Origin: Bilabrum cf. latius
Taxonomy: Eukaryota
Length of the DNA: 64,000 bases
Direction of reading: 5' to 3'
Assembly (NCBI GenBank): GCA_965178125.1
Contig: OZ237735.1
Coordinates: 806,001 to 870,000 of the forward strand
Made by a program: the position numbers and the translations under genes
Notes under the pieces: generated by a model
What the model was told of the DNA's origin: nothing
The model's database searches: none
What the model saw: only the letters and a program-made list of their open reading frames with translations
In this document: positions 16,342 through 58,753 of the stretch, piece after piece
How positions within the stretch are numbered: position 1 is the stretch's first letter
How the letters are laid out: the number at the start of each line of letters is the position of its first letter

Positions 16342-16494
16342 CTTGCAGTGGGTCAACGAGTGATTGTGGCGGGATCTGCTTGATGACGACGATGGGAATC
16401 GAACGGCTATGTGAGTGCCCACCAGGCACCTCTCGTTGAGGTCGCATGGAGTGGTCGCCACTGGCAATCCAAGCGCATTCTAGCAGAATCTCCT

Positions 16495-23208: not shown

Positions 23209-24621
23209 TCAACGACGCTTGTAAATGCAAGGGGCGAGACCAAGCCGAGGCTTCTTGGCTGGTGACGGGGCAGTGCCTTGCTCTTCCTTCGCAACGCGCT
23301 GAACTGCACCGTCACCGCTTCCATGTGCTTTGCCCTGAGTGCCTGCTCCGATTTCGTTTCCTTCGCCTTGTGCTTCGCCACCACCTTGTCCAGCCCCGCG
23401 CCGCTTGCGCTTCCTTGACCTCTTTTTCTTGCCCTTCTTCTCTTGCCCGCCGCTATCAGACGCGAGCTACTCAGAGGCACCTGCACCAGATGCGACGGAT
23501 CCCTGCTTTTCCGCTGGACCTGCCTTCGTTGTACTGGCGCTGTTGCTAGGCGCGACTGCGGCCCCTGTAGTGGCTGATGCAGACTAGGAGATAGTGGAGA
23601 GTGAGGATGAGGATGACGATGTGGATGAATTCGCCGCTGCGGGCGGAGAACCGCTCTTCTTTGCCCTGCGCCTCCGCTTCTTCTTTGCCACTACAGCGCC
23701 TGGCGCGCTTGCATCATCGACCCCACGCGCGCCGTGTTGCCCCTTTCCTGCGCTGGGCACAGCGCTGGGACTTCCACCAGTGATTTGCTGGCTGCTCGCT
23801 ACTACCTGTCCAACTGCAGCCCCGGCCCCGGTCGCAGCAGCGCTCATTGCCTTTGCCTTGCTTCGACTGCGCTTCTTGCCGCCAGGCTTTTTGAACTCTG
23901 CGACAAAGAACATGGTGTTGCGCGTTTGAATACGCACCAGCTTCATTCCTCCACCGATCTGGCTGACGTTATCCAAAAAAGCGCGAAGTTTCTGGGAGAT
24001 TCCTGCGGCGCCTCGTGCTGGCTTGCCAGATGCAGCGGATGCAGCCCCAGAAGCAGAGTCCAAGAGAGCACTACCATCGGCACCTTCCTATGCATCCCCT
24101 TCTACCCGGCTGCGAACTTCGGCTATAAGAAGCATGCCACCGGGCTTAAGGACTCGAGAGGCCTCTCCAATGAAATCCTCTGCATTCGTGCCCATCAGCG
24201 ACAAGCAGAATACTACAACATCCGCAGTAGCAGAAACAAGCGGGACGTTGCGAATGTCGCATATGGTAATGTTTTTGTTGCCTCCGTCGCCGAGGTCGAA
24301 CGAGTGGACCTTGTGAGTCGATCCAACTTCCTTTGCCAGTCTTGCTTCACCACATCCCATATCTGCAACGATCCGCCCCGCTGGCAGCTGCTGCAGCCTG
24401 GCAATAATTATATCGAGCGGATTCTCTGGCCATTTCGAAACTTGTTCACGGTAGCCTCGGTGATACAGGTTGAACAGGTCCGGCTCTTTCTTGAACATCT
24501 CCAGGCTCGACGACGACGAGCTCGTGTATAGCTGCTCGTTCAATAGCCTGAACTTTCCACCTTCTAGATGTTTCACAAAAGATTCTCCTGGTACTGACCG
24601 TTTGTTGCCACGCCGCCCCAT
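23209..24621 (-). CDS. RRP8: Ribosomal RNA-processing protein 8 (rRNA m1A methyltransferase, nucleomethylin family); 3 in-frame TAG
   Basis: GGKFRLLNEQLYT, YHRGYREQVSKWPENPLD, VADMGCGEARLA, VFCLSLMGTN, RVLKPGGMLLIAEVRSR. The family C-terminal motif LAPCIYKRR-TGA is reached only by reading TAGs at 24088, 23584 and 23467. Confidence 0.93.
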
Positions 24622-25002
24622 AATTGCAAGAATGGTGCAGTTGCACAAGCGAAGAACTGCGAGCTCCAGATTTAACGCTCCGAGTTACTCGGTGCGGTGG
24701 CTGCAAATTGAGTGTACATGCAGCAACACAACTGTGTGCAGCGCGCTGCGCAGTTTATTGGGTACATGTACAGTGGACGATTGACGTTGGTCTATGCAGT
24801 GGCGTGAAGTGTGGCGTGCTTGCGAAATGTGCGAGACTCTCGGAAGCTGAGCCAACCACTTGCGGATGCGCCAGTGGTGGCACGACTAGGATTGCGCGCT
24901 GGGGCAAGGCTTGGGCCCAGAATGGCATGCGTTGCGCAAATCACTGGCATACTGTGCATGTGAAGTACAAAAACAGATACGAATGAATGCGCATGCAGTC
25001 CA

Positions 25003-28000
25003 TCAAACGTGCTGGCCTCGTAGCAGGCTCCTAGCGGATGTGACCCCACCTGACTTGCGCACTACTACACTGAACCGCTTGCTACCGGCGTGCCTGCTCG
25101 CAGCCAGTGCCCCCCTCTTGCCAAGATCCTTTGCTTGTGCCGGCAAGCCAGGCGCATCAGCAGTGGCCTTCCAGTGGCCCGAGTCGCCATCCAGCCGCAG
25201 TTCACGCCGGGTAACTAGCTTGCCTCTCCTTGAGGACCCGCTACTAGATACACTTTCGGTCACACCCGAGGATGCGACTGCCTTCCCCCTGCTAGCTGGT
25301 GCCATGGGATTGGTGACCATAGCGGTGACCCCCTAAGACTGGCCCGGCTATGAAATGGGGCGTTGCTGCTCGTGCTCGCCACCCCGAGGTGCGTCCACGT
25401 TCGATCTAGTGCCGCGATGCAGGCCCACATCATCCTGCAACAAAGTGTACCAAAACAGCACGAACAGAATTGAGACGCATGCAATGCTACCGATGCCTAC
25501 AAGGTACGTCATGACCACTGCAGCGGATTGAAGCGCTTCGCGGCTAGACTCGAAGTCTGGATGCAACAACAGGCCAGCAATAGTGTTGAGGCCTACTGCG
25601 AGTCCTGACAGGCTCAGGATACCTAGTTTGCCTACTCGCTTCCATTGATATTCCTCCAGGAACGGTTGGCTAATTTCAAACGCAACGGCAGCCACGACCA
25701 ATACCAACACCTACAGCGATCCAGCTAGGATGGTCCGGGTAGGATCACTGGGTACCCACAGCGGTTCCAATGCCGCTAGTATCAAAAGCACAGCCCAATC
25801 AACTGCTCTTATCCACGCAGCCGAAGCTCTGTAGTCACCATCTGCAAAATAGGCGAGCCTGTTTGTTTGTCTCAAGATCAGTGACCTGTCTCGGATCGTC
25901 TCTACGACGCCGCGAGCTGCGAACGAAGATAGCCGAACTGTGACAATAGATCGGCTGCTACCGCGCGAGACGTTACCGCCCCGCTTGGATACTGCCTTTG
26001 GTACGAGGCTCTGCTCGGCTAGCCGGGTCTCCGAGCGAGCCTTCAAGCCAGATGATTTGAAAGGCAACTGCTGACCAGCCATGTAGGAGACAGACACCCT
26101 GGGGCCATCACGTTTCAGCTTGGACCCTATCGAAGGAGCGGAAGACAGGCCCTTCAGGCTGCCTGGTTTCCTGTCCTTCATACTGGCGAGTCGAGCTCGC
26201 AGGTCTGGGATACGGAGGGCTGCTGAGTCATGGGACACGGGCCCAGATGTCACTGCTTCCGGCGAGTCTAGCCGCCGCTCTGGCTCTCGACCATTTGAGT
26301 CCCCTGGCTACAGCATGATGCCATGTTGGTTGCAACATGGCAAAACCCGGAGGCATTGCTTGCCGTCTTGTATGTCCTGCCACTCCCGCATGGCTTCGTC
26401 AAATTCTCGCCCTGTTGGGCTCAGCCTGACGACCCTATCAATCTCTGGAGACACGATTCCAAGCAAGAACGCTGGTAAACCAATGATGATAGCTATCATG
26501 GCACTTGCACCAGCTATCACCGCACGAGTATGGCCAGTGTCGCCGAAACACAAAATCGTCGGATCTGAAGCAAGCAGCAGAACGCTGCCATCGTCAGGGT
26601 CGTGACCAAAAGATGCCAGAATTACCTGTGCAGGAGAAGGCTGGGAGTTTGTCGAGTTACTCAGCACCGATGCGTTCGTTCCAATATCTGCCACGTCGCT
26701 CAACAAAGCTGTCGTGAAGGTGCTTCTGTTGTTCGACCGCAAGGTTGAAAACTCATCAGCTTGGTTCTAACGCTCATCACCGACCACTGCAGCGATCTAC
26801 TCGGGTTTTCGGCAATCAAAGACTTGCACCACAGTAGAGCATACAATGGCGTACACCAATGCAGTAAATGTTAGCATTGCTCTGGCTGCCATTCCAGTGG
26901 TAGCGGACGCATCCCCTCGTGAAAGAGCACGCTATCCTGGTCCTAGGCCAACTCTAGATTGGAGAATCACACGCGCGTCCACTCGACCAGGCTGCAGCTG
27001 GTGCTGCAACAGAAGGTCATCACTGTGCTGCTAGTGAGGCTACGTTGCCTCCACAGAGTCCTTCTATTCATGATGCTTTGTTGAAGCGTTGAATAAGCCT
27101 GACAATGTACCAGCCTTCCTAGCTCGTTGAATCGGATTTTGCTGGGAGAAGCGCATGCTGGGTCGTTGAGAAGCTAGCCCAGACAACCTAGAGCTGGTTG
27201 GATGCTTTTCTGCACGATCAACAGTGCTCCGTGGCTCCGACGGGGCCGAATACCAGAACGCGAAATAGCCAGAAAGGCAAACGAGCGTAGCAAACACCAG
27301 CACGAGAATCTCCTGCGACATGCTCAGACCACCGATGCAGCTGGGGTGCACGATAGCAGAGCTCTCAAACCGAAATACATCAAGCATAGTAATAATCCCA
27401 TAGTACCAATCTGGTAGGCCCGGGCTTACGGCACGCCCTGCCTATGCAACAGTCTGGAGCAGAGCTGCAGCATACAGACAGAACTATGCGGTCCGTTTTG
27501 CAGCAACCTTCAATGAAAGCCCTCGAAGCTGTGCAACTAAGCCGACTGCAAGGACAAGGACGGTAAACGTGACAGCTACTCCTGCAGCATACAGCAGCAT
27601 GGGCTGTACCAGCAGCCAAGCCGATGGAGATGTCGGGCACAGTTCACATCTTCCGCTTGGCAAAGGGTACCTACCATCTTCGCACAATGAGCAGGCAGGA
27701 GATCCTTGTTTGTAGCCAGGTCCACACTTGGAAACTTCCTCGACCTGGTCCCATCCCATGCACCTCTCGGTTGCGGGTGCCTCGCATCGTAGCACCAAGC
27801 CAGACTCCTACGACTTGGTCCAATACCCAGGCAGTGGCTGCGCCTTGAACCCGCCTGGGCACACAGCCCCAACTGGACAAGGTCGGCACTAGTCTCCCGC
27901 CCCAAATGCACACACTAAGCCGGCACGCACCGCTTCGCGGTCGCTGCACAGCCCGCCGGGCTGGGGGAAACCAACGCACCTGTCGACATATTCTATCCCC

Positions 28001-31000
28001 CCACGAAGCGCCAATGCAACAGCGGCTGTCTCTGTAGATGCTAAAGCATGAGGAGAAGAGAGCGCCTGGATCGTCGAGCTAGCACTAGCTGTGTTAGATT
28101 CAGCACTTGGTGCCAGGAGCAAGCACCCACCGAGACGTGATCCTGGGCCATGCACTTGCAAGGCATTTCGCCATTCTGCCATGAAGACTTCACTGTTGCA
28201 CAGGGCTTCTGTCAGCAATTGAGTCCGCTCACGAACAGAAAGAATTGTGCCGCCGTTCTGCAGCTATCGCTTGCTGTTTATAGCACTCTAGAGGCTTTGG
28301 ATGCTCGGCACAGGCGTTGCGGTGGCACTTGGCAACCCACTCGTATTCAGCATGACAGGAGGCAGCACCAATAGCACTGGGCGTGGCCCGTTGCATTCCA
28401 GAGTGCTGCAATCGACCAAGTCTGAACGGCTGGGCAATAGGATGGTCGCAACGGTTCCTCCCGCATCAACGGATAATACCTAGGCCAAAGCTGCACCCAC
28501 ATACACGTGCATGTCTCGGGAAAGGCATGGAAGAAGTACCTGTGGATCGGCACGGGATTCTGGACAAACCAATGTTATCTCTACAGATCCAGACGCAACA
28601 ATTTGCGGACCGAGCCAAGGTATCTGATCAGGAGCACGAGTTGACACCCTCACAATGGACTGAAGCTCCGAATCACTCACGTCATTCACCGCGGCAGCAG
28701 CCGCATCGGATATTAATCTACGCTTCTCACTCGATGATTCAGATGATTGCTGTGGGCCCGTATTCCAAGATGATATATATCGAGACTTCTGCTTCAGTAG
28801 CGACGCCGCTGACCCAGGAGCTGGACTGGTTTCAGTGGCTCCCATTGCCTCGGTCCCCCATACGGCATCTGGCAAACGAAACAATAGATCTGTTGGTTCT
28901 GGCCACTGGATGGGCAGGTGAACCACACCTATCTTGAAAGCGAGCGGTTCTTGGTAGTACGACGGTTCAAGCGGGCCTGGAAGCAGTGCAATGTCCTCGG
29001 CAGTGGTCTACCCAGAGTCTCTGCCAGCTACCTAGTCGCGCAGTGTGTTTGCTGCATCAATGGTAGTACCTGCAATAACACACACAAGCCATCCGCGCCC
29101 ATTGCCATCGTATGAATTCCGTGCGGGTGAATTCTCTTGCGTTGTCCAACTGAGCGAAAGTGTCGCCGAGGTTGAAGTCGATGATCCTGCAACACCATTC
29201 GTAGCAACCGAGAAACTTGGGTTTACAACCGCAAACGTGCTAGGAATAGACTGAATTGACCCCCTGCCTGATGCGGCTGCTATCGTCTCGCTGTATATCC
29301 CTCGTTCAGTAACATATTGGCTGTCATGAGCAGCTTGAACCACACATGCGAGCACAACTGCTTCACCAGCCACACTTGGAAACGGTAGCGGCACGCTCAA
29401 AGTTGGAGACATAGCTGCAGACAGCATCAACAAGGACTCACGATCAGGATGAGCTTTCGATACATTACCCGCATACGATAGCAGCACTGCCGCAGCCTTG
29501 GCAGAGGATGGGTGGCTTGATGGCAGCCCATCAGCAATGCCAGGATCGGGTGACACCGGCGTGCTGACAACTGGTGCATCCCCAGAGCCTCCCCCAGTTG
29601 TAGGAATTGATCTACAGGATGATGGAGAGAGACTCTTCTACTCTGCTGGGCTGCCTTCCAAGATTGTGACAGCTTGCTGGCCATTCTGCCCTATTGAAGC
29701 AGCTCGGGCCAGCTGCACAAATTGCAATTCTCCGGAGCCTAGACGCAAGTCTGAAGCACTTTGAAGCACCAGAGATGCCCGAAGCTCGAGGCTGATACAC
29801 ACGCTCAAGTCAACGTCTCGGGAGCCGCGCACTCTCGTGCTATTTGCTAGGTCTCGGTCGGACACCCGCAAGGCTTCTTGCCACTCTATAGGAGCTGCTT
29901 CAACAGCTGGAACCTCGATTACCTCAGCTATTACACTGCTTATTCGAAGGAAGTAGTCCGCATGCTACCTAGATTGTGCGGCCCTAAAGACTGGGATTGT
30001 TTCACGAACTGGCTCAGCATTGATCCTGGCACCTTGACGTGCTTCGGAAGCATCCACGCCAGCGCTGGAGTTCGCTCGCGAGAACGCTACTTGGACAGCA
30101 GCAGTGGATACTGACTGAGTGCCATCCGATTCGCCTCGAAACTCAATTTCAATAGCGAGCTGCCGCGGTAAGCGTCCCATCGCCAAGAGAGCGACACGCT
30201 GAGCCTCGATATCAGCGGAGGATGATATGGACTTAGACACGACATATGCTAGTAACTCATCGGCGGATCGACCAAGAAATACAGCACCACTGCACACGTG
30301 TGCTCGAACGACCAAACTGGCACCGCAGGCTTCTGTTTGAAGGTTGCCAGGAGGCAGCGGTCGAACTCCAACGCAGTCAAAATATTCCCCAAGGGAAACC
30401 TCTGTACTTTCGTTCCGGGTGACACCAGTTGGCCAAGAGCATTTTGGTTGCATGCGTCGAGGCACGATCCAGGTTACAGGTTGGGACACTTCTATCGTCG
30501 ATGGCGCGACAAATGGTCCAGAGTCCAGTGGTAGCCCGACCATTTCATCCAGGGCAGATGCTAACGACGCTATACTGTGACGTTCCATCCTCAATCCAAA
30601 GAAAATCTCGAGCTGTATCCAAGATAGCAGCAGGCCAGGTGAATTGCCGAGTCGGATCTAACTGCCGTCAGACAGACGACCGGATACTCTCCCAGTATCG
30701 ACCAAATCGTTGGCTACTCTTGCTGTTTCTGCGACGAAAAGCTTGAACGCTTGCCCGCTTGAGGCAAAGCGAGCAAGTTTCCACGACAGGCTCATCACAG
30801 AAAAAGTATTTGGAATGGCTGCCACATCCTCTGTGCTTCCAGAGCCCAAGGCTGTTCCTACGACTGATACAATTCTACTTGATTCCCCAAGCACGTCCAA
30901 AACGTTTTCAGTGATATTCTGGCTTGAACGCAAAGGGAGCATGCTGCTTTGATTGAGTAATCGAACGAAGTCGATACTCCCATTGAGCACCGCAGAGACC

Positions 31001-34000
31001 CTGCTGTCGAATAGATCCATTGGAGTATCCACGTGCACCATCAACAGACCGTCGCTTGCCAAGGACCGGGACCCATCAATTCCAGGAGCAGGGTCGACCT
31101 GCAAATGTGACTTGTTTAGCAAACCAAAATTCGGGGCATATCCAGCACCGATACAAGCAACATCGCTCCGGAGACCCAAGTGGGGCAGACCCGGCACAAG
31201 GAAGTGTGCGAAGCAAACCCTGACCGGTACCAGTGCTACCAACTCATTGCTGCGCAGCAAAGTCTAATTCCCGCTACCCGACGAGTTAACACCACCGACA
31301 AGTGATCCTGATGGATCTCTAGCCCAAAGCCTTGACGTCCAAGACCGGACTGCGGACAGCGCTGTGTGCTGCAATCGCAGCGATGCTGGTGTTGAGGCAG
31401 AGACAGAGCACAGTACTCGCTTCAGACCATCATTGCTCCACGCACGTGTCAGGCACTACGTATCTATCCCTATAATAACTTTAGAGACGGCAATGTGTTT
31501 GATGACGTCCTGCGAAATGGTTCGCGATGTCTCGATGACTACCGAGTTGCCTAAGCTGGTCGACCTCGAAATCCGTAAGTCATCACCAGAAAGAGCGCGA
31601 TGGTTGGATATGCCCCCAGCAGCGCTTGCATTCAATTGCAGATGCTGAATTCCGCCGAAGGACCCGTTTCTGAGAGAATAAGAGCTTACAGCATCTGCAA
31701 GAAGCTCTCCATCCAAGTCAGCCAATGCAGCAATGGATGATCCGAAGTGCATCGTTAGGTCATTCAGTTGAATTTCGCCAGATAGTCTTGATAACCTGCT
31801 AGATGACAGGATCTGGGGCTACTACGATTGCCCTGGGCCAGAAATACGCAAGACCCACACCGCTCCGGAATTGTTCATGAAGCCAGGGGCACCTACCAAC
31901 ACAGTTGCTTCACTAACACCAGCTGCAAGCCCTACGCACGATACAGAGCTTCCGAACATGTCTCCCTCCGATAACAACAGGCCAGTGCCACTTCGTTCCG
32001 AGACAAGACTCACGGAAGTTGTCTGTGTCACATTGCCAACTTGAGCTACCGTAACGATGGCGACAGCCCCCGTTCGAAGACTGCCGCTCGAGTTGTACCC
32101 CGGTAAGCCGATGAGCAGATGAGTTTGGTTTGGTAAGCTCTGCTCCAGAGGAAGTACAGCAACTGAATGGCCAAACCCCGGAATACCTCGTAATCCCGCT
32201 GCCACGCCCAACTGTGCTCCAAGAAGCTCGCTGTAACTCTGCACTTGAGCATCAGCGGCAAACATTAAAACGAACAGAGAGCCTGCAGTTTGACCCTGAT
32301 TAGGAGCGTTTCGCCCAGGAGCACCAACGATTGCATCGAGGATGCCATCGCCATCAAGGTCATGCACAGCAATTGCCTGCCCAAAGCGGTCGCCGTCAGC
32401 AAGCACGGTGTGACTGGCCCACATGTCTTGGATTGAAGCAATACCTTCAACTCGACCCGTGTGCGTGATACGAACTTGAGCGACTAGCCCGGTCATGCGC
32501 TCGCCAAGTTGTGCGGTCGGTATGCCCACAAGTAGACGAGATACGTTGTCGCTCACCTGGGCTGCAGGAAAGGTAACAACAGACACTGCGAGAGGCTCCT
32601 AGGGCAGAGACCTTCCTCCAACAATGAAAGTTGAATTCAAAAAGGCAGCTCGACTTCTAAGTACGAAACCTTGTTCGTTGAGAAGTATCATTTGAACCTA
32701 GACGCCGCCTGATGCACGCAGCGAAACACGTACCAAGTCGGCAAATCCATCTTTATTGGAATCCCCAATACATGCAATCGCAGACACTTCGTCAGCACCC
32801 TGTTCATTCGCATTCACGGGAGCTTGAAGTCCCAAGCGGTGCGTCCCGTAAAGCATGTAGTCTGACGCATCTGGAGGAAAATCTGCATTCAGCTCTATCG
32901 TCAATATTAGTCTGCCTCTGGCACCAACTCCAGCATCACCTGCGATTGGAACCGCAAGATGTACTGAGCTCGAGAGCGTTGCATAGTCAAGGTGCTACCC
33001 AAAAGAAGCAAGCTATCCACCAGCTGAAGCAAAGTGGGCACCAGCAGCAGGATTAAGGCTAGCTAGTTGAGTTTGCTGCAGAACGCGGATAGACTTTACC
33101 CAGAGGTCTGTGGGACTCAGCGTCAGCACCCAAATCGCCCCCTATTCAATATGCTATAGTGTAGAATACATAAATCCAAGCACGGCGATTCCGGCTTGTC
33201 CAGTCCCATCGATATCACCCAATGCTGCGATTCCGCTGCCAAACCTAGCCTGATCCTAAAGTGGTTGCAAGAAGCCTCGGACCATGTGACCAATCCGCCC
33301 AGCGTACTTTGCAGCCTAGTGCGGCGCGTTAAACTTGAAAAGGTGGACCGCCCCGCGCTCGAACCCGACAGCGCTGTCTCTTGGGGCACCAACCAGAACT
33401 AGTCCGGCGTTATGGCAGCAAGTATCTTTAACCCAAGCAACCGAAGCTCCAAATTCTTCCTCTGCTTGCACAATAGCGCCTATTTCAGCAACACCAGGCA
33501 TGATTGATTCGCGGGTAGACACTGCTCTAGATGTGGTCAGCCACAATATGTGCACGGCACCTCGTCGAGCGTTCCCAAAAGGCTCGCCGACAATCAGCTC
33601 ATCCACGCCGTCTGCATCGACATCCGCAGCTGTCATAGCAACATTGCCAAAGCCTGGGCTACCTTGACCTAGTACGGTTGGATTCACTGAGCTTGTCGAG
33701 CCGTTCAAGTGAACGCTTGTAAGTGCTACCAGGTCAGAATCCCGAACAGTACTGTGCAGTCCATACGCCACATCAACGCTATCGGACTTTCGAACACCAC
33801 GCAAAATGGCGGCTGCACGGGTCTGATTAGGCCATCGATTTTGGGTCACGTTTCCCGAACTCAAGCTGCTGGAAATGAAGTGGGAAGGACATGCTGCAGT
33901 GGGAAGGACACAGCTAAATAGAGTGCCTGAGCCGTTTCCATCACTTCCAATAACACTCAAATACGGAACAGAGCCGTAGAACCAGGTTGAATCCGAAGCA

Positions 34001-37000
34001 ATGCGCAGCCCATCACCGTCAAAGAGATCGAAGCCTGCAGAAGGGGAAGACCCGCTTGCAACCTCGATCAAACTGGCGTTCACCAGCGAGCCTGGGCCGA
34101 TACTTGGAAGGCCTAGCACAGAGTTGTTACCCCGAAGCATAAGTACCATCAATTCTCCCCCATCCGATGATGCATACTACCCGCGCCCTAAAGATTGAGG
34201 CAATCCGACAGCCAAAGATGACACACCTGTCTCGGCAACATCGATTGGTCCTGCTAGCACGCTGCCAAACTAAGCATTGGCCCCAATGCCGACAAAAAGC
34301 CCGTTTGATCTGGACTCTATGACGCTTGAATACAGTATTGAATCGTTCTAAATGAGAAGGACGACAATGGCACCCTGCTTCGCCCGGCCTGCCGGTGAGA
34401 AACCTGGAGCACCGACGGCGAGATCCATGCTCCCGTCGAAATTCATGTCTCCCAGGCTCGCGACAGCCTGCCCAAAGCCTAACCAATGCAACGGTTGTAC
34501 GTGCCTAGAAACAAGTTTATCAGGGGGAACAAAAATTTTTACAGCGGAAGCCTCTGCGTCAGCAAGGCCTGCGATCGGTAGCTGGATAAGGTTGACTGCG
34601 CCATGGCCGCAAGTAGGCGCACCAACGACAAGGTTCACATGATCTTCGCGTATCGCATGGTCAATTCCAGCTAAAATCGCCAGGGAGGTGCCTGCACGAC
34701 AGTTGGACTGGCTACTCTGAGCAGGTATCATGCCTATCCTCGTAGAGTTTAGCTCTGGGCCTACCGAGAACAACTCAACGTGCCCGCTGTGACCACCAGA
34801 GGTTGGAGCCCCAACAGCAAGCAGATCGTTGAATCCGTCGGAATTCGTGTCTGTGCATGCAAGACTACTCCCAAACGAGGTTGAAACCATGTCTGTTGCT
34901 GAGAATGAGCTTGCAACTGCTCGCGCAAGAATCGGCTCCGCTGCACCACCTAGTCTCAACAGGATCACAACCTCCCTCCCGTCTAGAACCCCACCAACTG
35001 CTAGAGTTGAATTTTCCTTCAAGCTCTAGTGATAGCCGAGTCCACAAACACTATCACCTATTACGAGCGAGTTTGAGGCATGGCTACCTGGAAGTACTCC
35101 CAGGATGGAACTCGCAGCAATTGTGATACTGCCTGACTATGAGCCGTCAGCAAGTAGCTACAACAAGCGTAGCCCGTTAGTCAAGCCTCCGGAGCCAGCA
35201 GATCCAACGGCAACTAGGTCTCCGTATCGGCCTAGACCCCGGGTAGACCGCACAACAACTCCGACAGAATCGCCTCCCATCGGCAGAACTCTCAGAGATT
35301 CTTCTGGCATGCTCCCGAGACCACTAGCCAATCTTGAAACAGATTCGACCGATCCAACTTCGTCACGTAATCTGCAGCTCGCGCATGGAATGCGCACGGA
35401 AATCACAGACCCAACATATGAACTAGAATTGTATCCACCGGGCGGTAATCCGATAATTAGTGTAGCACTACCAGGTGCATGTCGGGATTCTCCACCTGAC
35501 TGAATTGACTGGCCCACGAGAGGAAATGCATAGCGTGGAAAAAGATAGCCCAGACTACGAGCAGGTATGTATCGCGCTGAAAGTACTGTACCGCTCGCCG
35601 TTAGATGCACCAAAGCTATGGCACCGGCGGCCAGCTACACACCATCGTTCGACTCTGGCATTCCGATACAAACATCTTCCACAAAATCACCGTTGAGGTC
35701 CGGCATTGCAGTCACAGAACGACCGAAACCCCTGATTCGATCCAAGTATAGTGATCCAAATACGTCTGACTGTGTAATCTCTTGGTGTCGGGCTACAGCC
35801 ATCGTTGAAACGTCAACGTGAATCACCCAAACAGCCCCAATCGTGGCATTGCCGACCGCCTTCCGCAAAGGGTCTCCCACAAAGACCCGACCTAATTCAA
35901 ATTGAGCAATTCCGGGTAACCTAGCCAGTGGAACACTGGCTCCAGAAATGCTACTGCCAAAGCTCAGTGTAGATGGGTTCAGAATCGAAAAGCCTGCGGT
36001 CGCCGGCATGATAACGCTGCTGCTCAATACTGTGCCATCGAAGTCAAATTTCAGTAGTACGACAGAGCCGACAGTATCTCCGCTAGCCAACGATGCCATG
36101 CTGCACCCAACTGCTAACTCATTTTCACCATCCCCGTCGACATCAAGAGCTGCGAGAGACGAGCCAAACCCAGCCGTTGAATCCAAGCCAGCTGTCAAGT
36201 TCTGCTAGAAAACCGTATGAGTCTCGAGGACAGATGCGTTTGAGGCCAGTGTTACCACCCATACCGCCCTCGTGGCGATTCCAGCAAAAAATAATCGTCC
36301 ATGCGAACTAATAGCTACGCGAGCACGACATGAAGCAGGGGCATCCGTACCAAGCGATACGACATGCCTGCCGAAGCCAAGACCCGTCAGAGCCGGTACT
36401 TCCAACCTAGGTGTCCCTCCAGGTTCCAGCCAAACAGTTCTTTGCACTTCATCCGAGTATTTATTCAGTAGCATGACTGCAACACCGCCAGCTGCAGGAG
36501 ATTGTCCGGCTGCCCTGTTGGGTGCCCCGATACAGTAGGCGTCGTTGTCCTCGCCACCAAGGTTCTCAACCACTGCAGCACTTGCTCCAAACATGTCAGA
36601 AGCCTGTACCAGTGGAGCACCAAGCTTGCCGGGCTGAATGCTAGCCTAGACTAGGAAAGATGATTGAGTTGTACCAAATGTAATACGGTCCAAGCCAGCA
36701 AGTTGCATGAGAGAAAACTGTGGGGTGCAACCGACATCGCCCAGGGCTTGTGAAGCAGACCCCGCAACAGCCAAGCTGTGGCGTCCATAAATGCTAGAAT
36801 CCTACACGGCAACTAGAGGGTTCACAAGGAAAGAAGGATTTGAGACAAAAGCTGCAATTCTCCCACCTGCTGGCGAGAGGACGAAGTGGTGCGAGGCAAC
36901 ACCGTTGGGCAACATCCGATGGACAAACAGCTGCCCGTTACCGCCATCGAAGGTCTGTCCAGGAGCACTTACAATAAGGTAGGTCAAGTCAGTGTTATCT

Positions 37001-40000
37001 AAGCCTCTTAAACTCGTCAAGTACCGCCCAAAGTGCGCGCCATCCTGCAAGTCGATAGGGACCGTACTGCCCGACCCAGCTGAAATGTACACCACATCCT
37101 CCACTATAAATGCAGTAGTATTTAGCACGAAGACTAACACAGAACCGGTCTCATTTCCGTGTGCGCTATCTTTGAAGGCGCCAACGGCTAGCGTCACAAA
37201 CCCTGGGCTACCAGTCATACCAATATCTTCCTCGCATAAGTATGCTGTCATAGAGCTTCCAAGCTCTGATCCGGGTGCTACCAGCGGAAATTGTAGTGCC
37301 CATCCTTGCTACGACCCGATGATTTTTTGTAACTCCGGCTCCAGTGACGATGCATCAACGCTGATCAGATGGATAGCGCCCCTGGAGCCATCCGCACCCG
37401 GAGCACCTACTGCCAACAGTAGCATCGATGCGTTCGACTAGATACCAGTGCTGCTAGCAGGAATAAGGCATACCGATGCACCAAATTGGTACTGATTTAC
37501 AATAACAAACCCTGAAATGATTGATCCGGGGCGCACTATATGAACATGACTCGGCCAGCCGTCAGGCTCGAGTTGAGCAAGGACAACAGCACCGACGCCC
37601 TGACTTCCGCGAGTTGAAAAACCCGGTGAGCCAATAGCCAAAATTGGCAACGTTTCGTTGCTAGCATGGTTGCAAGCTAATGATGCTCCAAACTACGCAC
37701 CGCTCCAATTTCCAAAGAGCTGTATAGCTGAGGGCTCAAATTGAACCTCTTGGGAAACTTGATGCTAGTTCAGTCGAGATACCGCAACAGTCCCACCGGC
37801 ACCTGCCATGGGATACCCGATGGCAACATCGCCGAATTCGTCTCCATCAATACTTCCAAGCGAGCAAATTGAAGCTGCGCTGAAATCGATGGTTTCACTT
37901 GCTTCAATGGATCCAGCCATGCAAGTGCTCGTCCTGGGCACTGACACGATTTGGCTTGCTTTGAACGGATTGCTGTATGTGTCCCCGACTCGCGTGTCCA
38001 CCAGAATGGTGTCACTAGTATTCCTCGAACCAATAAAAACACGATTTGTGATTGAATTGGACGTCAACTTTGAGACAGCAAATCCAAAGTCAACCAACGA
38101 GGCTCCAGCATACTGAAGGGCGGGTCCGGATTCTGGGCCAAACTGCCCATACACTGACGCCGACTTCGCCGCACCACTGTCGCCAAGCAAAACTGCAGCA
38201 ACATGTCCTACACGGCCATTAGTTTCCCTGAAGCTAACGTATAAGTCAGGGCGGCCGTCTTGGTCAAGGTCGCCAGCAGCTCCCAAACCTCGTCCGAGAC
38301 GCGTGAAGTCAACATCCACGGCTGGTGAGGTACTTAGCGATTCTGGCAGCAAACGAGAGAAGCTGACGATGCTGCTTGCATCGTCAATAAAGAAAACCCA
38401 CACCGACCCAGTCTTAGATAGAACATTGTGACCAGAAAATGACTGCCCAACAGCCAAGGTCACGGTTCCATCCGCCGTATTTTCTCCAAGGAACGCGACA
38501 GAGTCACCAAAGCGTCCGTTTGTCTCAATGCCGGCACTGAGCCCAGGGCTCTGCGACGAAATATTTAGGACATGTTCGTGAGAGCTGGTTGAAATACGGT
38601 AGACCAGAACTGCTCCTTCATCACTGTTGAGTTTCGGAGCGCCAACAGCTAATAGAGTGGTCCCTTGCACCAAAGACCTGCTTGAGGATCCCAAAACGTT
38701 GACATTAACAGAAACTGATGCACCAAATCTGTCCTGACTTCCAATGAAACTCGGTGGCACGATTTTCTGCAGCTGGGTCGGTGCCAAAGAGGCGGCCGAC
38801 AACTAGATGAGCCAGACAGCTCCTAGCTTCATCTCGCCACGTCCTCCAGGCGCACCAACTACGATCAATGGCAAAAACTCGCTGGAATAAAGTCTCGCCC
38901 GGGTACAGCTGGTCCCAAACCGACTCCCAGCCTGCAAGTATCCCTATCGAAGGCTCTCATTGAGGTGCGTCCGGCCGCTGATCTCGGTGATTCGATCAAA
39001 CTCGAGGTTAGGCTCTGTACGGTTAACGTGAAACAAGAGGACTGCACCGATATTGTCATCAACACTGGGAAGACCAATACACATAGCTTCTGGCGAGTCA
39101 ATTCTAGACCAAGAGAGGAGACTCATGGCTTGAACAAAGTCACCTGCTTGGAACCGTGTTCGCTGCTGCAGCAGGTCGGACACGCTCAGCATACTGGTTG
39201 AACGGACTGCAGTGGCCGATGATTCACTTCTCTCACCACGCACAGCAACTGAGTGAATGGAACCAACAGAGGAGCCATCTGCATGGCCGATTACCAAGTC
39301 TGGCATTCCGTCCCCATTCCAATCCGGGACGCTTGCAAGACTGCTGCCAAAGGCAGGCGAGGGAGTCAGGTTGAAGTCTGCGAGCCACGATGATGTAGCC
39401 CCGTCGATCCTTGACACATGTAACACGTTAAAAGTCGTTCCTGATATTTCAAAGATCCACACGATTCCGTGCAAGCTCCCAGCACGTTTAGCATCCGGGC
39501 TGCTCACAGCCACTACCATCGTTCCCGAGTGCCTCTGCTGCACCGCAGCAACACAGTGCCCAAACCCACGATGCAAAACGTCTGGATCATCTATCGACGC
39601 GGGAGCTGACAGTGATGCTACATCAAGTACATCCATTGATTTTGACAAGGACACCACGTAGACCCTTCCTGTGACCTCTGCCCTCGGCGCACCAACAGCA
39701 ATGGAGTTGCTGCCATCCGTCGTCCTCAGCCCCCAAAACTATGCACTGCTACCGAACAGGCCGCCGTGAGACAACATGGCAAGCTTTGCTGACGACTATG
39801 CACTTAGCTCCGCGAAGCGTAGGACAGTTGAAATATTGTTGGACACAACAAGTGCGAATAGTGAGCCAGAGCCTCCAGGCGCACCAACCAGGATCTCACT
39901 GCGACCGTCATGGTCAATGTCCACAAAAGATACTGCTGCTCCGAATCGATCGCCCGGTTGAACCACGGGTAGACTACCATGCAGTGCGTGTGCACTTTGG

Positions 40001-43000
40001 AGAGTATAGTTCTGGTGGAGAACAAACATGTAGACCTCACCGGAAGCCTCGCCATTCATACTTGAGGCTGGAGCTCCGACTAGAATCTAGGGTTGTCGCA
40101 CTTCCCTGTCTCGAACAACTGCAATTGACGCGCCAATCTCACCCCCGACAACCCAAGTTGGCATGATATCCTCATCAACTACCACAATCCGTGATACCGT
40201 TCCGTTGGGTTTCTGCACAACCGTGGCAAACGCCCCAAACGGAACCGTGTCCACCAGCGCACCAGCCCAGGGAAGGCCAACGCAGAGGACACTGGCGTGT
40301 GCATCCATGTTGAACACCCCTAAATGTGCTATGCCACCCCCTCCAAACGACAAGTTTGCACCGTTTAGTGTCGAGAAGCTGTCAAACATATCACCGAGAA
40401 CACGTCGATTGGTGACCAGATCATCGTTTCGCAGGCGGGGTGGGGCTCTGGGAGTCACCTCCAATGCATCAATAGAGAGACGCCAAATGCTTCCTCGGTT
40501 GAGGCCCGTTGCACCTTCCTATCCACCGATAATCAAAGCAGGTCTACTATCGCCATCAAGGTCCACCCATGATGCGGCGCTGCGACCAAAGAATCGAACA
40601 GCGTCATACGACAGCCCCACAGTAGCGGCCTCTGGAACAAGCCGCTTAAAGTCCTTTACCTGCATCGTTTCGCCTACCGCCCTAAAAAATAGAATCCAAA
40701 CAGCCCCACGAGGCTAAGAGTTGAAAGTGTAGCGGGGCGACCCGACTGCAACGTCCGGCACGCGATCGTCATCAATGTCACCAAGTGCTGTGAGACTGCT
40801 GCCGAACCTTGCATCCACCCCGAGGCTGCCCGTGAAATCGCCACTATTCTCAAGCACACGAGTCCAATTTTCAGCGCGTAACTCCCTCGAAATCCCAATA
40901 GTGTAGATCGCACCTTGATCGGTAGCTCCTTGATCAAGCCGAGAAGCCCCTACCACAAGGTACAAGAATCCAGTTGAGCTCGTAGCAGGCCTACCAATAT
41001 CCGTGATCGCTGATCCGAACTTGGCCATACCTCCAATACCAGCCTCCAATCCTGAGAAGCCTCGAGTGAATACCTAATCTCGCGCCACAGTGCCATTCTA
41101 ATGAAGCCACAAAGCTACTACGGAGCCAGCTGGAGCACCGGTACTGCTTCGTCCGCTCTCCATGCCGACCAACAGTTCTCCTACCCCATCTTCATCCAGG
41201 TCAAGAAAGTGCATGGCAATACCGAACCGCGCGTTCGCCCGTTGTCCAACTGAGAGACCTGCATAGGACGATATGAGTGCCTCGCCCTTGACCGTTCCGT
41301 TCGAACGCAGCATAAGGAGGACGACCACGCCTGCGTTCGAGTGTCCGCCGCTTGTGGCGCCAGGTGCACCCACGGCTATATCCGGCACCCCGTCCAAATC
41401 TACGTCGTGAATCCGGCAAATACTCTCACCGAACCTAGCCCCAGTCCCCAGCTAGGCCTGCATGCCCCCGGTAGACTGGGAGATTTCAGTGTGATAACTC
41501 ACGGTACCAGTGAATGGACGCAAGAATAGAACATAAACACTCCCCCCTCCAGGAGAAGCTGGCGCACCAACGGCAAGGTCGGTCTATCTGTCGCCGGATA
41601 TGTCGCCAACTACGCAAACTGCCGTGCCAAACTCATCTGATTCCTCCAACTGCGCGGTTAGCCCTCCCACCCCTTCGGATATTTGCATAGTATCCAAAAC
41701 ATTACCAGGAACCCGCCCAGTCTCCACAACGGTTTGTTCCCTAGGAGGAGACCAAGGTACTACGTCGGAAGTGAGGATGCTCATGGCTGTAATGGTGCCG
41801 GATAAATGCTGCTCTCCTCTAACAGAATCGGTGCTGCTAGCCAGCAGGGACGCGATGCTTCCACCTTGTCTGTTGCCTGGCAAAACAGTTAGCCTCGCTG
41901 CAAATCGTCCGTTTGCAGGTAGCCTTTCCAAGCTTGACCCCGCAGCTGAGCATTCAGTTGTGCACGGGCCGATATCGGCAACTGCAAGCAAGCCCGTCGA
42001 CCTATCGGCATACGGCGGAACGCGCGCGAGGGCCCGCACTTGCAGTGCAGCGTCCATTTCAACAACGAACATAGCCTACTACTCGGGCGCTGCGATCGAG
42101 AGAGTCGATGTATTGTCTGTCGAACTGCGCCCTAGGCTCACAACAGCTTGTCCGAACAGTATTGCATCGCTCAAAGAAGTCTTGTAGATGCCAATATCAG
42201 CAGGGATCAGCTGAGTTGCATTCACCACGAAGCTCGTCGAGGCGTCAAGAATGAGAATCCAAATCGCCCCGGTGTCGGCACCAGCAAATGCTGTCATAGG
42301 CTGGCCTACGATGAGATCTCCCACACCATCCCAATCGACGTCGCACGCTGCTACCGAGTAGCCAAACTTCGCACCGGCCTCCAGCACCGGAACACCAGCG
42401 ACTCCTGATCCGATCTCAACAGCATCCAGGGCCCAGCCGGATTCGTGTAGTGTGACAATGATGACCGCTCCGGTAGATGCACCACCAGACGCCCGTCCGG
42501 GAGCTCCCAGCGCGACTTTCACACTGTCCTATGCAAAGCTAAGCACGGCTGCATCAAAACCAATGAGATCGCCGTTTTCCAATACTATATCGGCGGTCCC
42601 TTCCACATCGATCTCTCTTAAAGCCATTGCTGATCCGTTTCTTCTGACAACTATCCAGTAGGCCTCACCTGGCCCACGCCCAGGTGCCGTCACAAGTACG
42701 TTGCGGGACTCTACCCCGCCATCTGCAAAGACATCCAAAGCAATAGAAACTTTTCCAAACTTGTCACTCGGAATCATTTCAGAGGACTCTGCATTTGCTA
42801 GGACGTTGACGGTAGATGCTTGTGCAACGCGGCCGTCGCGCCGCTAGTCAAGCCAGGCGAGGCTTCCAGGGGGGTAGCTAGAGCCGAGACACCCTACCAG
42901 CACCACCGAAGTACCGTCGTTATCGAATCCCGGAATCGAGCCAACGCAAAGACCAAACTGATCTATCGCATCAAATTCGTAGGAATATAGCTTGCCGATA

Positions 43001-46000
43001 CCCGGTGTGGATGCAGCTGTGGCGAGAAGGTCTCCGTCCTAGTTGCTTGGCGACACACCTGCCAGTTCAAGGACATGCACCGTCCCGACAGTTCCGTCGC
43101 TGGCGAGGCACTAGGGACAGCCAACTGCGACTCTTGCATGTCCTAAAGATGTGGGCGACAATGGCTCGAATGCAACACCAAACAGACCAGTTCCCATCGT
43201 GCCGCCAAGAACGAAAGGCTCACTGGCTGCAGTGAGCGTCGTCGCGTGGAGGCAAGACCCATCGTCACGAAGAAGCAGAACAAACATGGCACCTAGTTCA
43301 GATCCATCAATTATATACTTGTGGCCACCTACGAAGAGGTCGTCAGTCCCATCACCGTTCAGGTCTGGCGTGAACTCCACTGCGACGCCGAACCGAGCTC
43401 CAACAGGCAAGAACCCGTCCGGCAATCCACCTCTGCCGTTTGCAATTACCTGTAGCTCGGACACGGTTTCGTTTTCATGAAGTGTGAAGACTGTGACGGC
43501 ACCGAGGTTTGATGTGGTAATTTCGCCAGACTCTTCGCTCACATGGCTTCCTGAAGCCATTCGAAGGCTGTGCGGGCTTTGGCGAGGCTACACCTGGCCC
43601 ATGGGTCGGAGAAGTGCCGACAATGACACCCCCCAGCTCGAAACTGGCATGTCGGCAAGCCCTGCAAGCCCATGCGTCTGCCGGGTCAGCCATACATTTC
43701 GCCTTGCAGTATCGTCTTTCTCAAGGTAAACCAACAGTATTCCACCATTGGGGGACTTTCCGCGAGCTCCAACCGCAATATCGACAAGTCCATCACCGTC
43801 CAAATCACCTAGGGATTGCACGTTAAACCCCCCGAAATCCCCAGGGCTAAACGCACCGCTTAGTGAAGTCTGCTGGCTTAGCCCGACAGCCCCCCGCAGA
43901 GTTCCGTTCTAGCCTAGACGAAGGATCCACACAGCTCCAGAGTCAGACGGTGCCGTCAACGGCGCCCCGACGACAAGTCGTTGCAAGTGGGGCTGGTCTC
44001 CACGAGGCTGCCAAAAGCTTGATAGCCCGTTTCCAAAGTGCGCAGGACTAGTCGAGGCTGTGGATGGGATTGGAATTTTGTGGCCGCCAAGCAGCTTCCC
44101 GCTGCCCGACACGCGCAAGATATGCACTGCGCCTCTGCCTGTATGTGGGCCCTGGCTTGCAGTCTTGGCACCTACTGCTACGAGATCAGCTCCGTCTGCG
44201 GTGACACCTAGTCTATGTATCGCAGACCCAAAGTACGAGGCGGACTCTTGCCACAACTGGCTGCTGGCCAAGAGATGGATCCCATCTGAAATATTCGAGT
44301 CTAGTGTCCTGCGGATGAGCCGCGCGACACCAAAGCCCCCTTTTCCGACCATACCCGACCCACTCACCTCTCGCGGGAACCCCAAGAGAATGCGGGGATA
44401 GTCCGACTAGGAGTCGGTGCCTGAACTAGATCGTGCTGGCGACCCACTCATAGATTCACCCAGCATCATGAAGGGAGCCGGGGCCGCGTATCCATTCGAG
44501 GCGAACGTTGCTGGGTTCAGCAGAAGAGTGTCCCTTACTCGGCCAGAGGCTTGCATGAATAGCAGCCACACCACTCCACACTGCGCAAATTGATTCGTGC
44601 CTACAGTAGAAAGGCAGCTCGACCCTGGTGCCCCTACAGCAATGTCTCCAATCTCGTCCGTTGCATCAACGGGGCCAAGCCAAGCGAATGAGTGGCCAAA
44701 CATGTCACCAGGGCGCAAATGGTGATTAAAGCCACCCACCCCATCCGATGCAATTGCATTTCGTGCGAAACTGCTGCCGTTCGATCGCATGAATACAGTC
44801 CAGGCTGCGCCAGAGTCGGCTTCCATGTTTGCAGTCATTGGGGATCCCAGCAGCAGCTCATCGCGACCGTCGCCGTCCAAATCCTTGGATACCCCAATTG
44901 ATAAGCCCCATCTTATGCTCTGCAACAAGGAGCCGTCACTATGTGTAGGGTACATCACCACAGGTCGGAGCAGCACACCACTCGCTGCTATCCACAGCAA
45001 AGCTACACCACCTGATGCAGGCCCATCTCCCTACGTGCAGCTACCACATCCGATCGCTAGTTCAAGCAACCCATCGCCATCAATGTCGAGTGCCGCCATT
45101 GACGCTCCCCATTGACCCCCACTTGTCTAAAACGGCAAGTCTGCTGTCTCAGCTTCGTGTCTGATGGTTCGATTCGAGTGGAGCAACATCACAAACACAG
45201 AGCCGCTGCCGTTGATCCCTCTGCGTGGAGCGGAAGCTGCCGCATCTGGAATCCCATCTCCATCCACATCACCAACACCAGCAACCGCTGAGCCGTATCC
45301 ATCCGCAGAGTTCAAGACAGTCGCCCCGCTGAACCCTGTTCTGACATCTGTTGTGTCCCGAATGCTTCCATTCTGAAAGAGCTGCACGGCATACACCGCA
45401 CCCGGGGAAACAGAGCTGTTCGGGTTCGGCGCCCCGACAATAAGAACATCTAGACCGTCATCATCGTAGGCAAGCACACCCATAGCTAGCCCATAGCCAG
45501 CGCCGTCATCAAGTAATTCTGGGGCTGAAGCCGTGACCATCGCTTCAACGCTCCCAACAGGCCGCATCGAGCCAGTGCCGTTCATGCACGCCAAAACTAC
45601 TGCGCCCCCGCTTGTTGCACCATCTGGCTTGGCAAATGGGAGACCTATGGCTAGATCAGCAATTGCGTCCTCGTTAATACTATCTAGGCGGACTAGTGCT
45701 GACCCGATGCCAGTGCCTGCCGGATTTGACCCTCCGGTGAAGAAGGACCTTACCGCGTTGGCGATGTTAATGTGGCCCTCGATCGTGCCATCCGCCTGGA
45801 GCAGCAAGACAAACAGCGAGCCCCCACTTGACTCATGACCAGGAACTGACACAGCTAGATCTAGCACCCCATTTCCGTCGTAGTCAGGCAGGGCAAGCAC
45901 CGTAGTGCCTATTGCGAGATTGGAGACTATGGGTATACTCGGCATGCCCGGAGTGTCTACCCTGTAGTCCTTCCCGTCCACAATACTCCCGGAAGCATCC

Positions 46001-47049
46001 AATGCTAATATTTGAAACGATCCAGCTTCTACTGCGCTGGGTGCCGCAGTCTCCTGTGCCCCGACAAGGAGAACTTGCACTATCCCTGTGTCGGTACCGG
46101 AGCCTGCCCGTATCGAGGCCTGCTGCAGAGCGGCTGCCACGGGGCGGTCTTCCAAGCTCCGTGGGTGCACCTGACTAGACAACCTCCAGTCGCACGGACC
46201 AAAGCATGACACAGATCTGCCGAATCGCCTGATGGGATACGCTGTTGTGCCAAAGTGACCCTACACCTAAGTCTTGCCTAATCGAACGTGGCTGACCACC
46301 TCGTCCGTGTCCGGATCCAGGCGCAGCACGAAGACAGCGCCAAACTAAGCAGGGCCATCATCCGACGCATCGAATGCAGCGCCAACTGCTAGCATTGGGC
46401 TGCTACTGCCTGGGTTGTACCCCAGACTGGCCATGCTGGCGCCAAAAAACCCCCCTGTCCGGATGAATGGGGACAACGAGCCTCCCGACATACTACTAAT
46501 CTTTATCTCCGACGACAAAGTGAAATTGCTAGTCACACGCAAAATATGAACTTGACCTGTGTTTGGGCCTCCAGCATTGCCCCGTGGACATCCTACTGCA
46601 AGGCGGCGGAGATGGGGCTGTCTGACAGCATCAGCGTCCGAGGCGAGCCGCAGGCCGGACTTGTTGCGAGGTTCCGGCCAACTACTCGGCTATACTGCCC
46701 ACGAGGTCAGGCTGCGTCCGCATTCAAAGCCTGTCATAGAGTTGCCGCGACTAAAATCTACGCCTGCGAGAACACTCCGGCGGTGTGCCGACAGCACGGC
46801 ACCACCAAAGCCTGAGCTAACAAACCTAACGCCCCCAGCTGAACTGGATGGCCCTGGGGCACCGATTGCTAGGTCTAGATACGAGTCTCCATTGATATCG
46901 CCGAGGGAAGCGACATCAAAGCCAAACATTTCTCCGGCTGTTGGACTAGTATCGCTTACCACGTTTCCAGAGCCGATCGAAACAGCATCAGCCGCATCCG
47001 TTGTATAAAGGAGCGAGATCACAATGAAGGCTAATACTATTTGTAACAT
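25003..47049 (-). CDS. Giant (~7,350 aa) surface protein: signal peptide, dozens of FG-GAP/integrin-alpha propeller repeats, Cys-rich segment, multi-pass TM C-terminus; apparently one exon with many in-frame TAG
   Basis: More than 35 minus-strand ORFs from 46690..47088 down to 25003..25320 share one frame. All ORF ends and gaps I checked (not every gap) have TAG only. N-terminus MLQIVLAFIVISLLYTTDA. Repeats such as FGFDVASLGDINGDSYLDLAIGAPG, FGSSLTALGDIDDDRVPDVAVGSP and FGQAIAVHDLDGDGILDAIVGAPG. Cys-rich CGPGYKQGSPACSLCEDGRY..CELCP, then several hydrophobic helices. Ends TGA at 25003-25005. Confidence 0.85.
31450..46950 (-). repeat. Protein-level tandem FG-GAP (integrin alpha beta-propeller) repeat array within the giant gene
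   Basis: Recurring FG-x-S/A-V...D-x-D/N-G-D-G-x-x-D/E-L-x-V-G-A-P...G-A-V-x-V/I units. Diverged, with no obvious nucleotide-level tandem identity. Confidence 0.85.
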
Positions 47050-47381
47050 GCCAGGGGATAACACGCGTCGCACGGCACCGAAGTTCACGTTGTCTGTATC
47101 AGATCGCCATGAATATGCGGTGCTCTAGAACGCAACGTTCTGACTGAACTTCAATACAAAGTTTGGACAATGATATATTGGAATTCAGGTTCTGGGTGAT
47201 TCTTGCTGAACTATGATGATTGGTTCTGTACTTCGCTGTGGTGCGAGAAAATTCCGGTTTGTCTTCATCCTCTCCAACTTGGCTTGCCAAGAGTTGCAGC
47301 CGCTGGTGCTCTTAGCATCGAAGCAGCTCGCAAAGACAAGCAATTTTCAAGGTCCATACCACTATTGTAGACCCAGGTTCC

Positions 47382-50562: not shown

Positions 50563-50710
50563 ATCGAACCCTGCTGAAGAAGCAACTGGAGGTGGCTCGG
50601 ACCGCGAGATTGGAGCACCAAAACTGAAACTCTCCTGAATAAACGAATTGGAACGCAACAATAGCCGGCCTGCATTTTTTCGTTTTCGCTCACTGCGGCG
50701 GCGGAGAGCC

Positions 50711-58631: not shown

Positions 58632-58753
58632 GACTTTGCTAGTATAAAGCACACGAAACTGGCTAAAACCTCGAAAGGTTGCATTGGATCGTTGTTGCGT
58701 GTACCTTGAAGAGCGAAAACGACATTCGAGGACACAACAAACAAGGCGAGAAC

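Follow-up and report, generated by a model that had tools for sequence, protein, structure and literature searches.

A TAG-sense eukaryotic gene for a giant FG-GAP protein with a predicted nine-helix membrane module

According to excerpts of two papers (PMC9815656, PMC9670195), cysteine repeat modular proteins (CRMPs) share a conserved core of two EGF-like domains and nine transmembrane (TM) helices, carry variable ectodomains that include C-type lectin and ephrin-receptor-like domains, and end in a cytosolic C-terminus. They are required for contact-triggered exocytosis of rhoptries or mucocysts, and CRMP homologues have been reported in Dictyostelium (same excerpts). Here, we describe a 22-kb gene whose predicted product has a comparable layout, found in a stretch of 64,000 nucleotides from Bilabrum cf. 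latius (GenBank assembly GCA_965178125.1, contig OZ237735.1, positions 806,001 to 870,000; hereafter the window, in whose coordinates all positions are given). A sequence-only reading of the window had pointed to this gene as one hidden under the standard genetic code, encoding an array of FG-GAP propellers fused to a multi-pass membrane domain. We lean towards reading the product, hereafter the giant protein, as a receptor for contact or adhesion, built on a nine-helix chassis of CRMP-like and TRP_C-like type, and it is from this architecture that we infer its ligand binding, signalling and cellular role.

The giant protein and the CRMPs (TgCRMPA/B, PfCRMP1-4 and the Tetrahymena CRMPs, as described in the excerpted sources) have in common a very large and variable ectodomain, a juxtamembrane Cys-rich region of EGF-like or ephrin-receptor-like type, nine TM helices (predicted in the giant protein) and a C-terminus on the cytosolic side (likewise predicted); the family of the giant protein shows this layout as well. 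In particular, the giant protein is predicted to show the succession by which PMC9815656 defines the CRMP core, in which EGF-like Cys-rich repeats lead directly into nine TM helices and the C-terminus is cytosolic. However, the CRMP ectodomains reported in these excerpts are of the Kringle, MAR, C-type lectin and similar types, whereas that of the giant protein is an FG-GAP array. CRMPs also act as heterodimers with partners, and their hosts are Apicomplexa and ciliates, whereas the present host is not established as an alveolate.

Proteins of the family PF06011 (fungal Flc1-3, Schizosaccharomyces pombe Pkd2 and algal proteins) resemble the giant protein in placing a C-terminal multi-pass module behind an extracellular domain. 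Those of fungi carry a small ML-like N-terminal domain in place of Cys-rich repeats or propellers. With integrin alpha subunits, the giant protein shares FG-GAP blades and their Dx[DN]x[DN]G Ca loops, and the modelled blade segment has its best structural matches in integrin alpha heads. Nevertheless, an integrin alpha has 7 blades, one TM helix and a short cytoplasmic tail, whereas the giant protein has ~74 blade-sized slots, nine predicted helices and a tail of 143 amino acids (aa), with no sign of a beta-subunit partner. Integrin_alpha2, which represents the thigh and calf legs, gave no Pfam match at E ≤ 0.01 in the whole protein and none at E ≤ 10 in its stalk. Given the lack of leg domains and the nine helices, the giant protein is not an integrin alpha. 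Adhesion G protein-coupled receptors (GPCRs) and polycystin-1-type receptors, in which a huge modular ectodomain stands on a multi-pass domain, are comparable by analogy only, as the giant protein has nine helices and another loop pattern. There were no Pfam matches to 7tm, GAIN/GPS, PKD or PLAT, nor was there a fold match. We found no evidence that the giant protein is a canonical TRP channel or GPCR.

The open frame and the ectodomain

Under translation table 15, the minus strand at 25003..47154, a strand that the sequence-only reading did not name, stays open for 7,383 codons in one frame. These codons include 75 TAG but no TAA, and TGA occurs only at the terminus; another in-frame TGA immediately precedes the start of the frame. 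The first ATG is codon 36, at position 47049, the same end coordinate as in the sequence-only reading, and the predicted giant protein is therefore 7,348 aa long. Its coding sequence, from ATG to TGA, spans 25003..47049 (7,348 codons plus stop) and holds 74 of the 75 TAG. All features of the gene described below lie on the minus strand, and residue positions (P0001 numbering) are counted from the frame start at 47154, so that the first Met is aa 36. Under table 11, the longest open reading frames (ORFs) within the region are 345 and 361 aa, in agreement with the earlier statement that the gene is invisible to the standard code. An in-frame TAA or TGA ahead of the terminal TGA, which would have spoken against the hidden ORF, does not occur.

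TAA and TGA together make up 2.7% of the codons in the other two frames of the same strand, and at this rate the chance of 7,383 open codons is ~1e-89. Additionally, the GC content of each codon position stays even over the entire ORF, TAG accounts for 1.0% of its codons, a density similar to that in neighbouring genes and relatives, and domain signal covers the frame from end to end. The segment directly after the first ATG at 47049, MLQIVLAFIVISLLYTTDAADA, resembles a signal peptide (aa 36-57; 46984..47049), with a hydropathy peak of 2.34 at aa 31-49 followed by A-D-A. We read the giant ORF as a single nuclear gene, intact and without introns, from a eukaryote that decodes TAG as sense and stops at TGA.

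The locus is continuous in sequencing runs. A single contig of run X1, from which the window itself may derive, covers 27400-47399 with 0 differences. Run X5, from a different study, yielded contigs that are identical and colinear, the one at 34737-44027 being 9.3 kb long, with no joint. This 9.3-kb contig has a 23-letter loose end at 34737 resembling what we take to be the SMART cDNA amplification primer, which would hint at amplified cDNA; no T-run lies beside it, and we did not count the likeness as proof of transcription. Runs X6 and X7, whose RNA status is only guessed, gave short and sparse contigs at the locus. A joint from 34251 to 41739 in X7 was taken as a chimera, since one side has only 21 letters and there are loose ends on both sides.

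The FG-GAP blade array occupies aa 73-5197 (31564..46938). PF01839 (cut-off 22.1 bits) matched 11 stretches in aa 1-2500 (E 7e-68, 224 bits) and 5 stretches in aa 2501-5000 (E 5.9e-38). An iterative profile derived from the blades of the giant protein itself detected 66 blades in aa 73-5197, 60 of them confidently (i-E < 0.01), and the inter-blade gaps of 70-116 aa could house degenerate blades, which would give ~74 blade-sized slots. The strict Ca-loop pattern D.[DN].[DN]G..[DE] matched 18 times, from aa 424 to 4932; some blades have no loop. The ~5,000 aa of FG-GAP repeats with Ca-binding loops noted from the sequence alone were thus recovered. Blade-to-blade similarity had maxima at lags of 6, 12 and 18 blades (means 39.8, 38.4 and 36.6; most other lags 32-36), and the offsets of internal alignments (409-448, 810-875, ~1,289, ~1,685, ~2,524 and ~2,970 aa) are multiples of ~427 aa. 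This super-repeat corresponds to ~12 propeller-sized units, which replaces the earlier estimate of ten 7-bladed propellers.

An AlphaFold2 (AF2) model of aa 1722-2741, built from an alignment of five internal paralogous stretches only, consists of two beta units of 23-24 strands (~6 blades) each with a disordered 45-aa segment between them. Its top matches in the PDB were integrin alpha head propellers (E ~1e-11 to 3e-12, probability 1.00). Judging from this model and the similarity maxima, each ~427-aa unit would fit six blades plus a linker, or plus a degenerate seventh blade.

Behind the array lies a stalk of 1,183 aa (aa 5198-6380; 28015..31563), which agrees with the unassigned stalk of ~1,100 aa described before and had no Pfam match at E ≤ 10 and no PDB sequence match at E ≤ 1. 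Its C-terminal ~800 aa are conserved at 34-36% in two metagenome relatives, L001 and L003: L001 aligned with aa 5572-6636 of the giant protein at 36% identity over 1,186 columns, and L003 with aa 5768-6130 at 34% identity.

The membrane module and its family

The juxtamembrane Cys-rich module (aa 6381-6510; 27625..28014) gave weak EGF and ephrin-receptor-like matches, and an alignment of 50 family members contains 13 near-invariant Cys ahead of the first helix (aa 6393-6506). Together with TM1-TM3 and their short outside loop (aa 6511-6635; 27250..27624), it forms block A of the family. A disordered basic loop (aa 6636-6746; 26917..27249) leads to TM4, an outside loop and TM5 (aa 6747-6911; 26422..26916), and a second, long disordered basic loop (~aa 6912-7110; 25825..26421) leads to the TM6-TM9 bundle (aa 7111-7240; 25435..25824), which is block B. 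The protein ends in a basic, low-complexity tail of 143 aa, followed by TGA (aa 7241-7383; 25003..25434). Both basic loops and the tail are predicted to be cytosolic. The outside loop between TM4 and TM5 is acidic and carries three NxS/T sequons and the VFDC and LASDPTILCFGDTGH motifs. The family consensus motifs LLYxxVxNxxxxxxxC and VLxxNPxxVCYEGxH correspond to the two motifs singled out in the sequence-only reading, whose Cys-rich module and several TM helices were found as well.

The AF2 model of the membrane module, based on the 50-member alignment (pTM 0.72; pLDDT > 90 in the ordered parts), shows nine long helices, along with three long loops that are disordered. K+R exceeded D+E in the predicted cytosolic segments (16 vs 9 in the TM3-TM4 loop, 34 vs 21 in the TM5-TM6 loop and 23 vs 11 in the tail), and the predicted outside loops had a net acidic composition (5 vs 13 in the TM4-TM5 loop). 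The TM4-TM5 loop also holds 3 of the 5 N-glycosylation sequons found in loops. The charge bias (positive-inside rule) and the sequons fit the modelled N-out/C-in topology with nine helices. A profile search of PDB sequences with the module gave weak matches only, the best being to the Cys-rich region of an ephrin receptor (E 0.0015).

When aa 6200-7383 served as the query of a full HMMER scan, 952 cluster representatives matched at E ≤ 1e-3, of which 501 reached E ≤ 1e-10 and 104 reached E ≤ 1e-30. The similarity was concentrated in two blocks, aa ~6380-6635 and ~7085-7240. Ahead of the same module, homologues carry C-type lectin (Lectin_C), RCC1, Kelch, TIG with EPTP, PQQ-type propeller, NHL or DUF642 domains, and many have no known domain. 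This supports the view, on comparison of sequences, that the module would be a receptor chassis with swapped ectodomains. The first 1,488 aa of L001 have no Pfam family and include a Ser/Pro/Thr-rich linker, that is, a different ectodomain on the same chassis. DUF7631 matched below threshold in the giant protein itself (22.5 bits; cut-off 27) as well as in two sets of homologues (27 of 35 and 17 of 29), and Ephrin_rec_like, also below threshold, in a few homologues. At scores of 0.90-0.93, the neighbourhood in a feature search comprised TRP C-terminal, Ephrin_rec_like and DUF7630 clusters from algae, sponges and cnidarians, which we treat as leads only.

Searches for giant relatives were negative. 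Among proteins of 4,060-12,921 aa, a word-index search scored 701 candidates for aa 5200-7383 and 695 for aa 200-5190, none at E ≤ 0.001; as its sensitivity is low and the proteins of the TAG lineage are fragmented, this result says little. A metagenome scan with the single giant protein gave 44 pattern matches and no relative. Literature searches for protist FG-GAP proteins with multi-pass, Ephrin_rec_like or TRP domains, and for tandem or giant FG-GAP propellers, brought up no such protein among the entries listed.

Weighing the readings

As a contact or adhesion receptor, the product would be a type-I-like giant surface protein, in which a signal peptide is followed by ~5,100 aa of FG-GAP in ~12 propeller-sized units, a stalk of ~1,180 aa, a disulphide-rich EGF/ephrin-receptor-like module and the nine-helix module, with the two long basic loops and the tail facing the cytosol. 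The propeller array would bind an extracellular ligand, such as a surface, matrix, prey or partner cell, and the rigid Cys-rich module would couple the array to the nine-helix module. The latter may then relay the event inward, either by ion conduction or by recruiting partners through its cytosolic loops and tail. A parallel may be seen in the CRMPs of Toxoplasma and Tetrahymena, which are thought to couple contact to regulated exocytosis. Adhesion or prey recognition would be a possible role, as the sequence-only reading proposed.

Several points weigh against this reading. The likeness to CRMPs is one of architecture, and any homology to them is putative. PF06011 (gathering score 28.5 bits) had no match at E ≤ 0.05 in the giant protein's module. 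Of 64 homologues, 3 matched the C-terminal half of this profile with their last TM helices, at 16-19 bits (E 5e-4 to 5e-3) and thus short of the threshold; a remote relationship may nonetheless exist. The model of the membrane module had no credible match to a solved fold in the PDB, either with Foldseek (best E = 4, none ≤ 0.001) or with VIA (best Z 8.0, generic helix bundles within the tool's stated noise), absence from these match lists not excluding a fold. In the piecewise structural check proposed earlier, the propeller segment matched integrin alpha, and the membrane module had no fold match. Of the receptor- or channel-like membrane domain suggested before, the receptor-like topology agrees with the nine modelled helices, the positive-inside charges, the sequons outside and the swapping of ectodomains in the family, whereas the channel-like part stays an inference, with no channel or GPCR fold matched. 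The AF2 propeller model is itself of low confidence (pLDDT 54, pTM 0.43). The giant protein's own blade profile found FG-GAP blades in 0 of 152 family members, a sample that represents the best 150 of the 952 matches and in which TAG-lineage proteins are fragmented. Likewise, aa 1-1488 of L001 (bases 1-4470) have no FG-GAP blade and no similarity to the giant protein. Since the FG-GAP fusion is absent from both, conservation of the exact architecture is unproven. Moreover, no run recorded as RNA carries the locus, and homologues show E, A, V, K or L at several of the TAG positions that we assign to Gln below.

Alternatively, the nine-helix module may be a Ca-permeable, force- or ligand-gated channel of the Flc/Pkd2 type (PF06011), with the array as a tether or gatekeeper in a mechanosensory protein. 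In the abstract of PMC9727806, the Ca permeability of fission-yeast Pkd2 is activated by membrane stretching, which we counted in favour of such a channel, together with the sub-threshold PF06011 matches in the three homologues. The feature search placed the homologues P0006 and P0009 nearest to a cluster named 'TRP C-terminal domain-containing protein' (scores 0.93 and 0.90), 13% of whose members carry PF06011, but these are again leads, as scores of 0.9 arise by chance in 4-10% of shuffled queries. The only named match of the word-index search, a 'TRP C-terminal domain-containing protein' of Edaphochlamys (UniRef), aligned with the family profile over TM4-TM8 (hhalign probability 98.5%, E 2.4e-15), although it has no Pfam match at E ≤ 0.01 itself. 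As no match reaches the Pfam cut-off of 28.5 bits and no solved channel was matched by fold, we regard a channel of this type as unlikely. We also give little weight to the protein being mainly a structural coat, glue or cell-cell adhesin, in which the multi-pass module is a non-signalling anchor. FG-GAP propellers with Ca loops are classic adhesion modules, as in integrins, and ~6,300 of the 7,348 aa are extracellular repeat and stalk, both of which argue for such a role. However, it is the membrane module and its outside-loop motifs that are most conserved across hundreds of proteins, with variable ectodomains, which is unexpected for a passive anchor, and the long basic loops and tail, predicted to be cytosolic, look regulatory.

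It seems very improbable that the locus, instead of being one functional gene, is a pseudogene in decay or a frame open by chance, or that separate genes or exons merely look continuous when TAG is read through. The absence of runs recorded as RNA over the locus would favour such a reading, as would the introns that are probable elsewhere in the genome, in the genes for beta-adaptin and AP-mu. Nevertheless, the ~1e-89 probability of the open frame, the domain signal that fills it, the uniform GC by codon position, the neighbour-like TAG density, the contigs from two studies without a joint and the signal peptide at the first ATG all speak for a gene. Returning to a contact or adhesion receptor, one could extend this reading and regard the giant protein as the member with the largest ectodomain so far of an ancient, eukaryote-wide family of Cys-rich, nine-helix contact sensors, with CRMPs and the fungal and algal TRP C-terminal proteins as branches. 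The chassis would have captured ~12 integrin-type propellers to become a Ca-dependent 'mega-integrin' that, needing no beta subunit, couples contact with prey or substrate to ion flux or exocytosis. We rate this extension as rather doubtful.

Genetic code, neighbouring genes and implications

Nine other ORFs of the window were checked, five on the plus strand (870-3365, 4673-10789, 50648-52576, 53325-55100 and 58679-62074) and four on the minus strand (21587-22867, 23209-24648, 47382-50090 and 55253-58324). Seven of them have a clear eukaryotic Pfam family, eight contain in-frame TAG, and all nine end with TGA. The window is nuclear DNA of a eukaryote, with genes for beta-adaptin, an AP mu subunit, an Rrp8-type methyltransferase, an EF-G/EF-2-like GTPase, a folate carrier, CstF-77/Suf and a UCH protease. 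All genes checked, 10 of them in the window and one in L003, terminate at TGA, and in-frame TAA is absent from the giant ORF, L001 and L003, though CAA is common there. Therefore, TAG alone seems to be reassigned, with TGA as the stop in use. L001 is open over all 8,603 bases (2,867 codons; 37 TAG, 0 TAA and 0 TGA), and L003 comprises 2,100 codons, of which 10 are TAG, before it terminates at TGA; both relatives show the same code as the giant ORF.

Regarding the amino acid, TAG112 of beta-adaptin falls on the Q in EWGQ(I/V)F of human AP-1/AP-2 beta, and TAG154 of AP-mu lines up with E. Most informative are truncated database fragments of relatives, which stop, in 6 of 7 cases, just before a column that is mostly Q in other sequences (Q shares of 4/4, 5/6, 2/2, 5/6, 4/8 and 4/4 at the six columns), and TAG7148 of the giant protein is Q in 4 of 5 relatives. 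In the CstF-77 alignment, TAG fell in poorly conserved columns (gap, V, K, L), which did not help the codon assignment, and no tRNA gene was found within the 64-kb window. These alignments favour Gln as the best assignment for TAG, short of proof.

Other observations concern the neighbouring genes. The EF-G/EF-2-like GTPase gene (47382-50090, minus strand) has 0 TAG, 0 CAA and 25 CAG; this strongly codon-biased gene seems to avoid TAG. In the giant ORF, TAG, CAA and CAG number 75, 102 and 115, respectively. The beta-adaptin ORF (870-3365, plus strand) begins at the equivalent of AP-1 beta residue ~118, and the AP-mu ORF (21587-22867, minus strand) aligns only from AP-2 mu residue ~42. The missing N-terminal parts are probably encoded by upstream exons, which implies that the genome has some 5' introns. 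The ORF at 4673-10789 (plus strand; 2,038 aa, 11 TAG) encodes a second large surface protein with NHL repeats, an LCCL domain, many teneurin-type EGF repeats and a C-terminal TM helix. The ORFs at 10942-16467 and 16495-21351 (both minus strand; 1,841 and 1,618 aa, 17 and 19 TAG) have no Pfam family, and the product of the latter is highly basic, Ser/Arg/Ala-rich and of low complexity.

Gene calling with the standard code breaks this 22-kb gene into fragments of 100-460 aa, and its relatives are present in public protein sets only in this broken form. Domain surveys are consequently blind to the largest surface proteins of this lineage. The gene also exposes a large membrane-module family, with 952 representatives and no solved fold, that would serve as a chassis for many ligand-binding ectodomains; as far as sequence comparison reaches, the fusion of FG-GAP to the nine-helix module is a variant not seen in the sampled family members. 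With its ~12 tandem FG-GAP units, the gene also offers an unusual natural case in which to examine the construction of multi-propeller ectodomains. If the link to CRMPs is true, the evolutionary setting for studies of contact-triggered secretion in parasites could become much wider.

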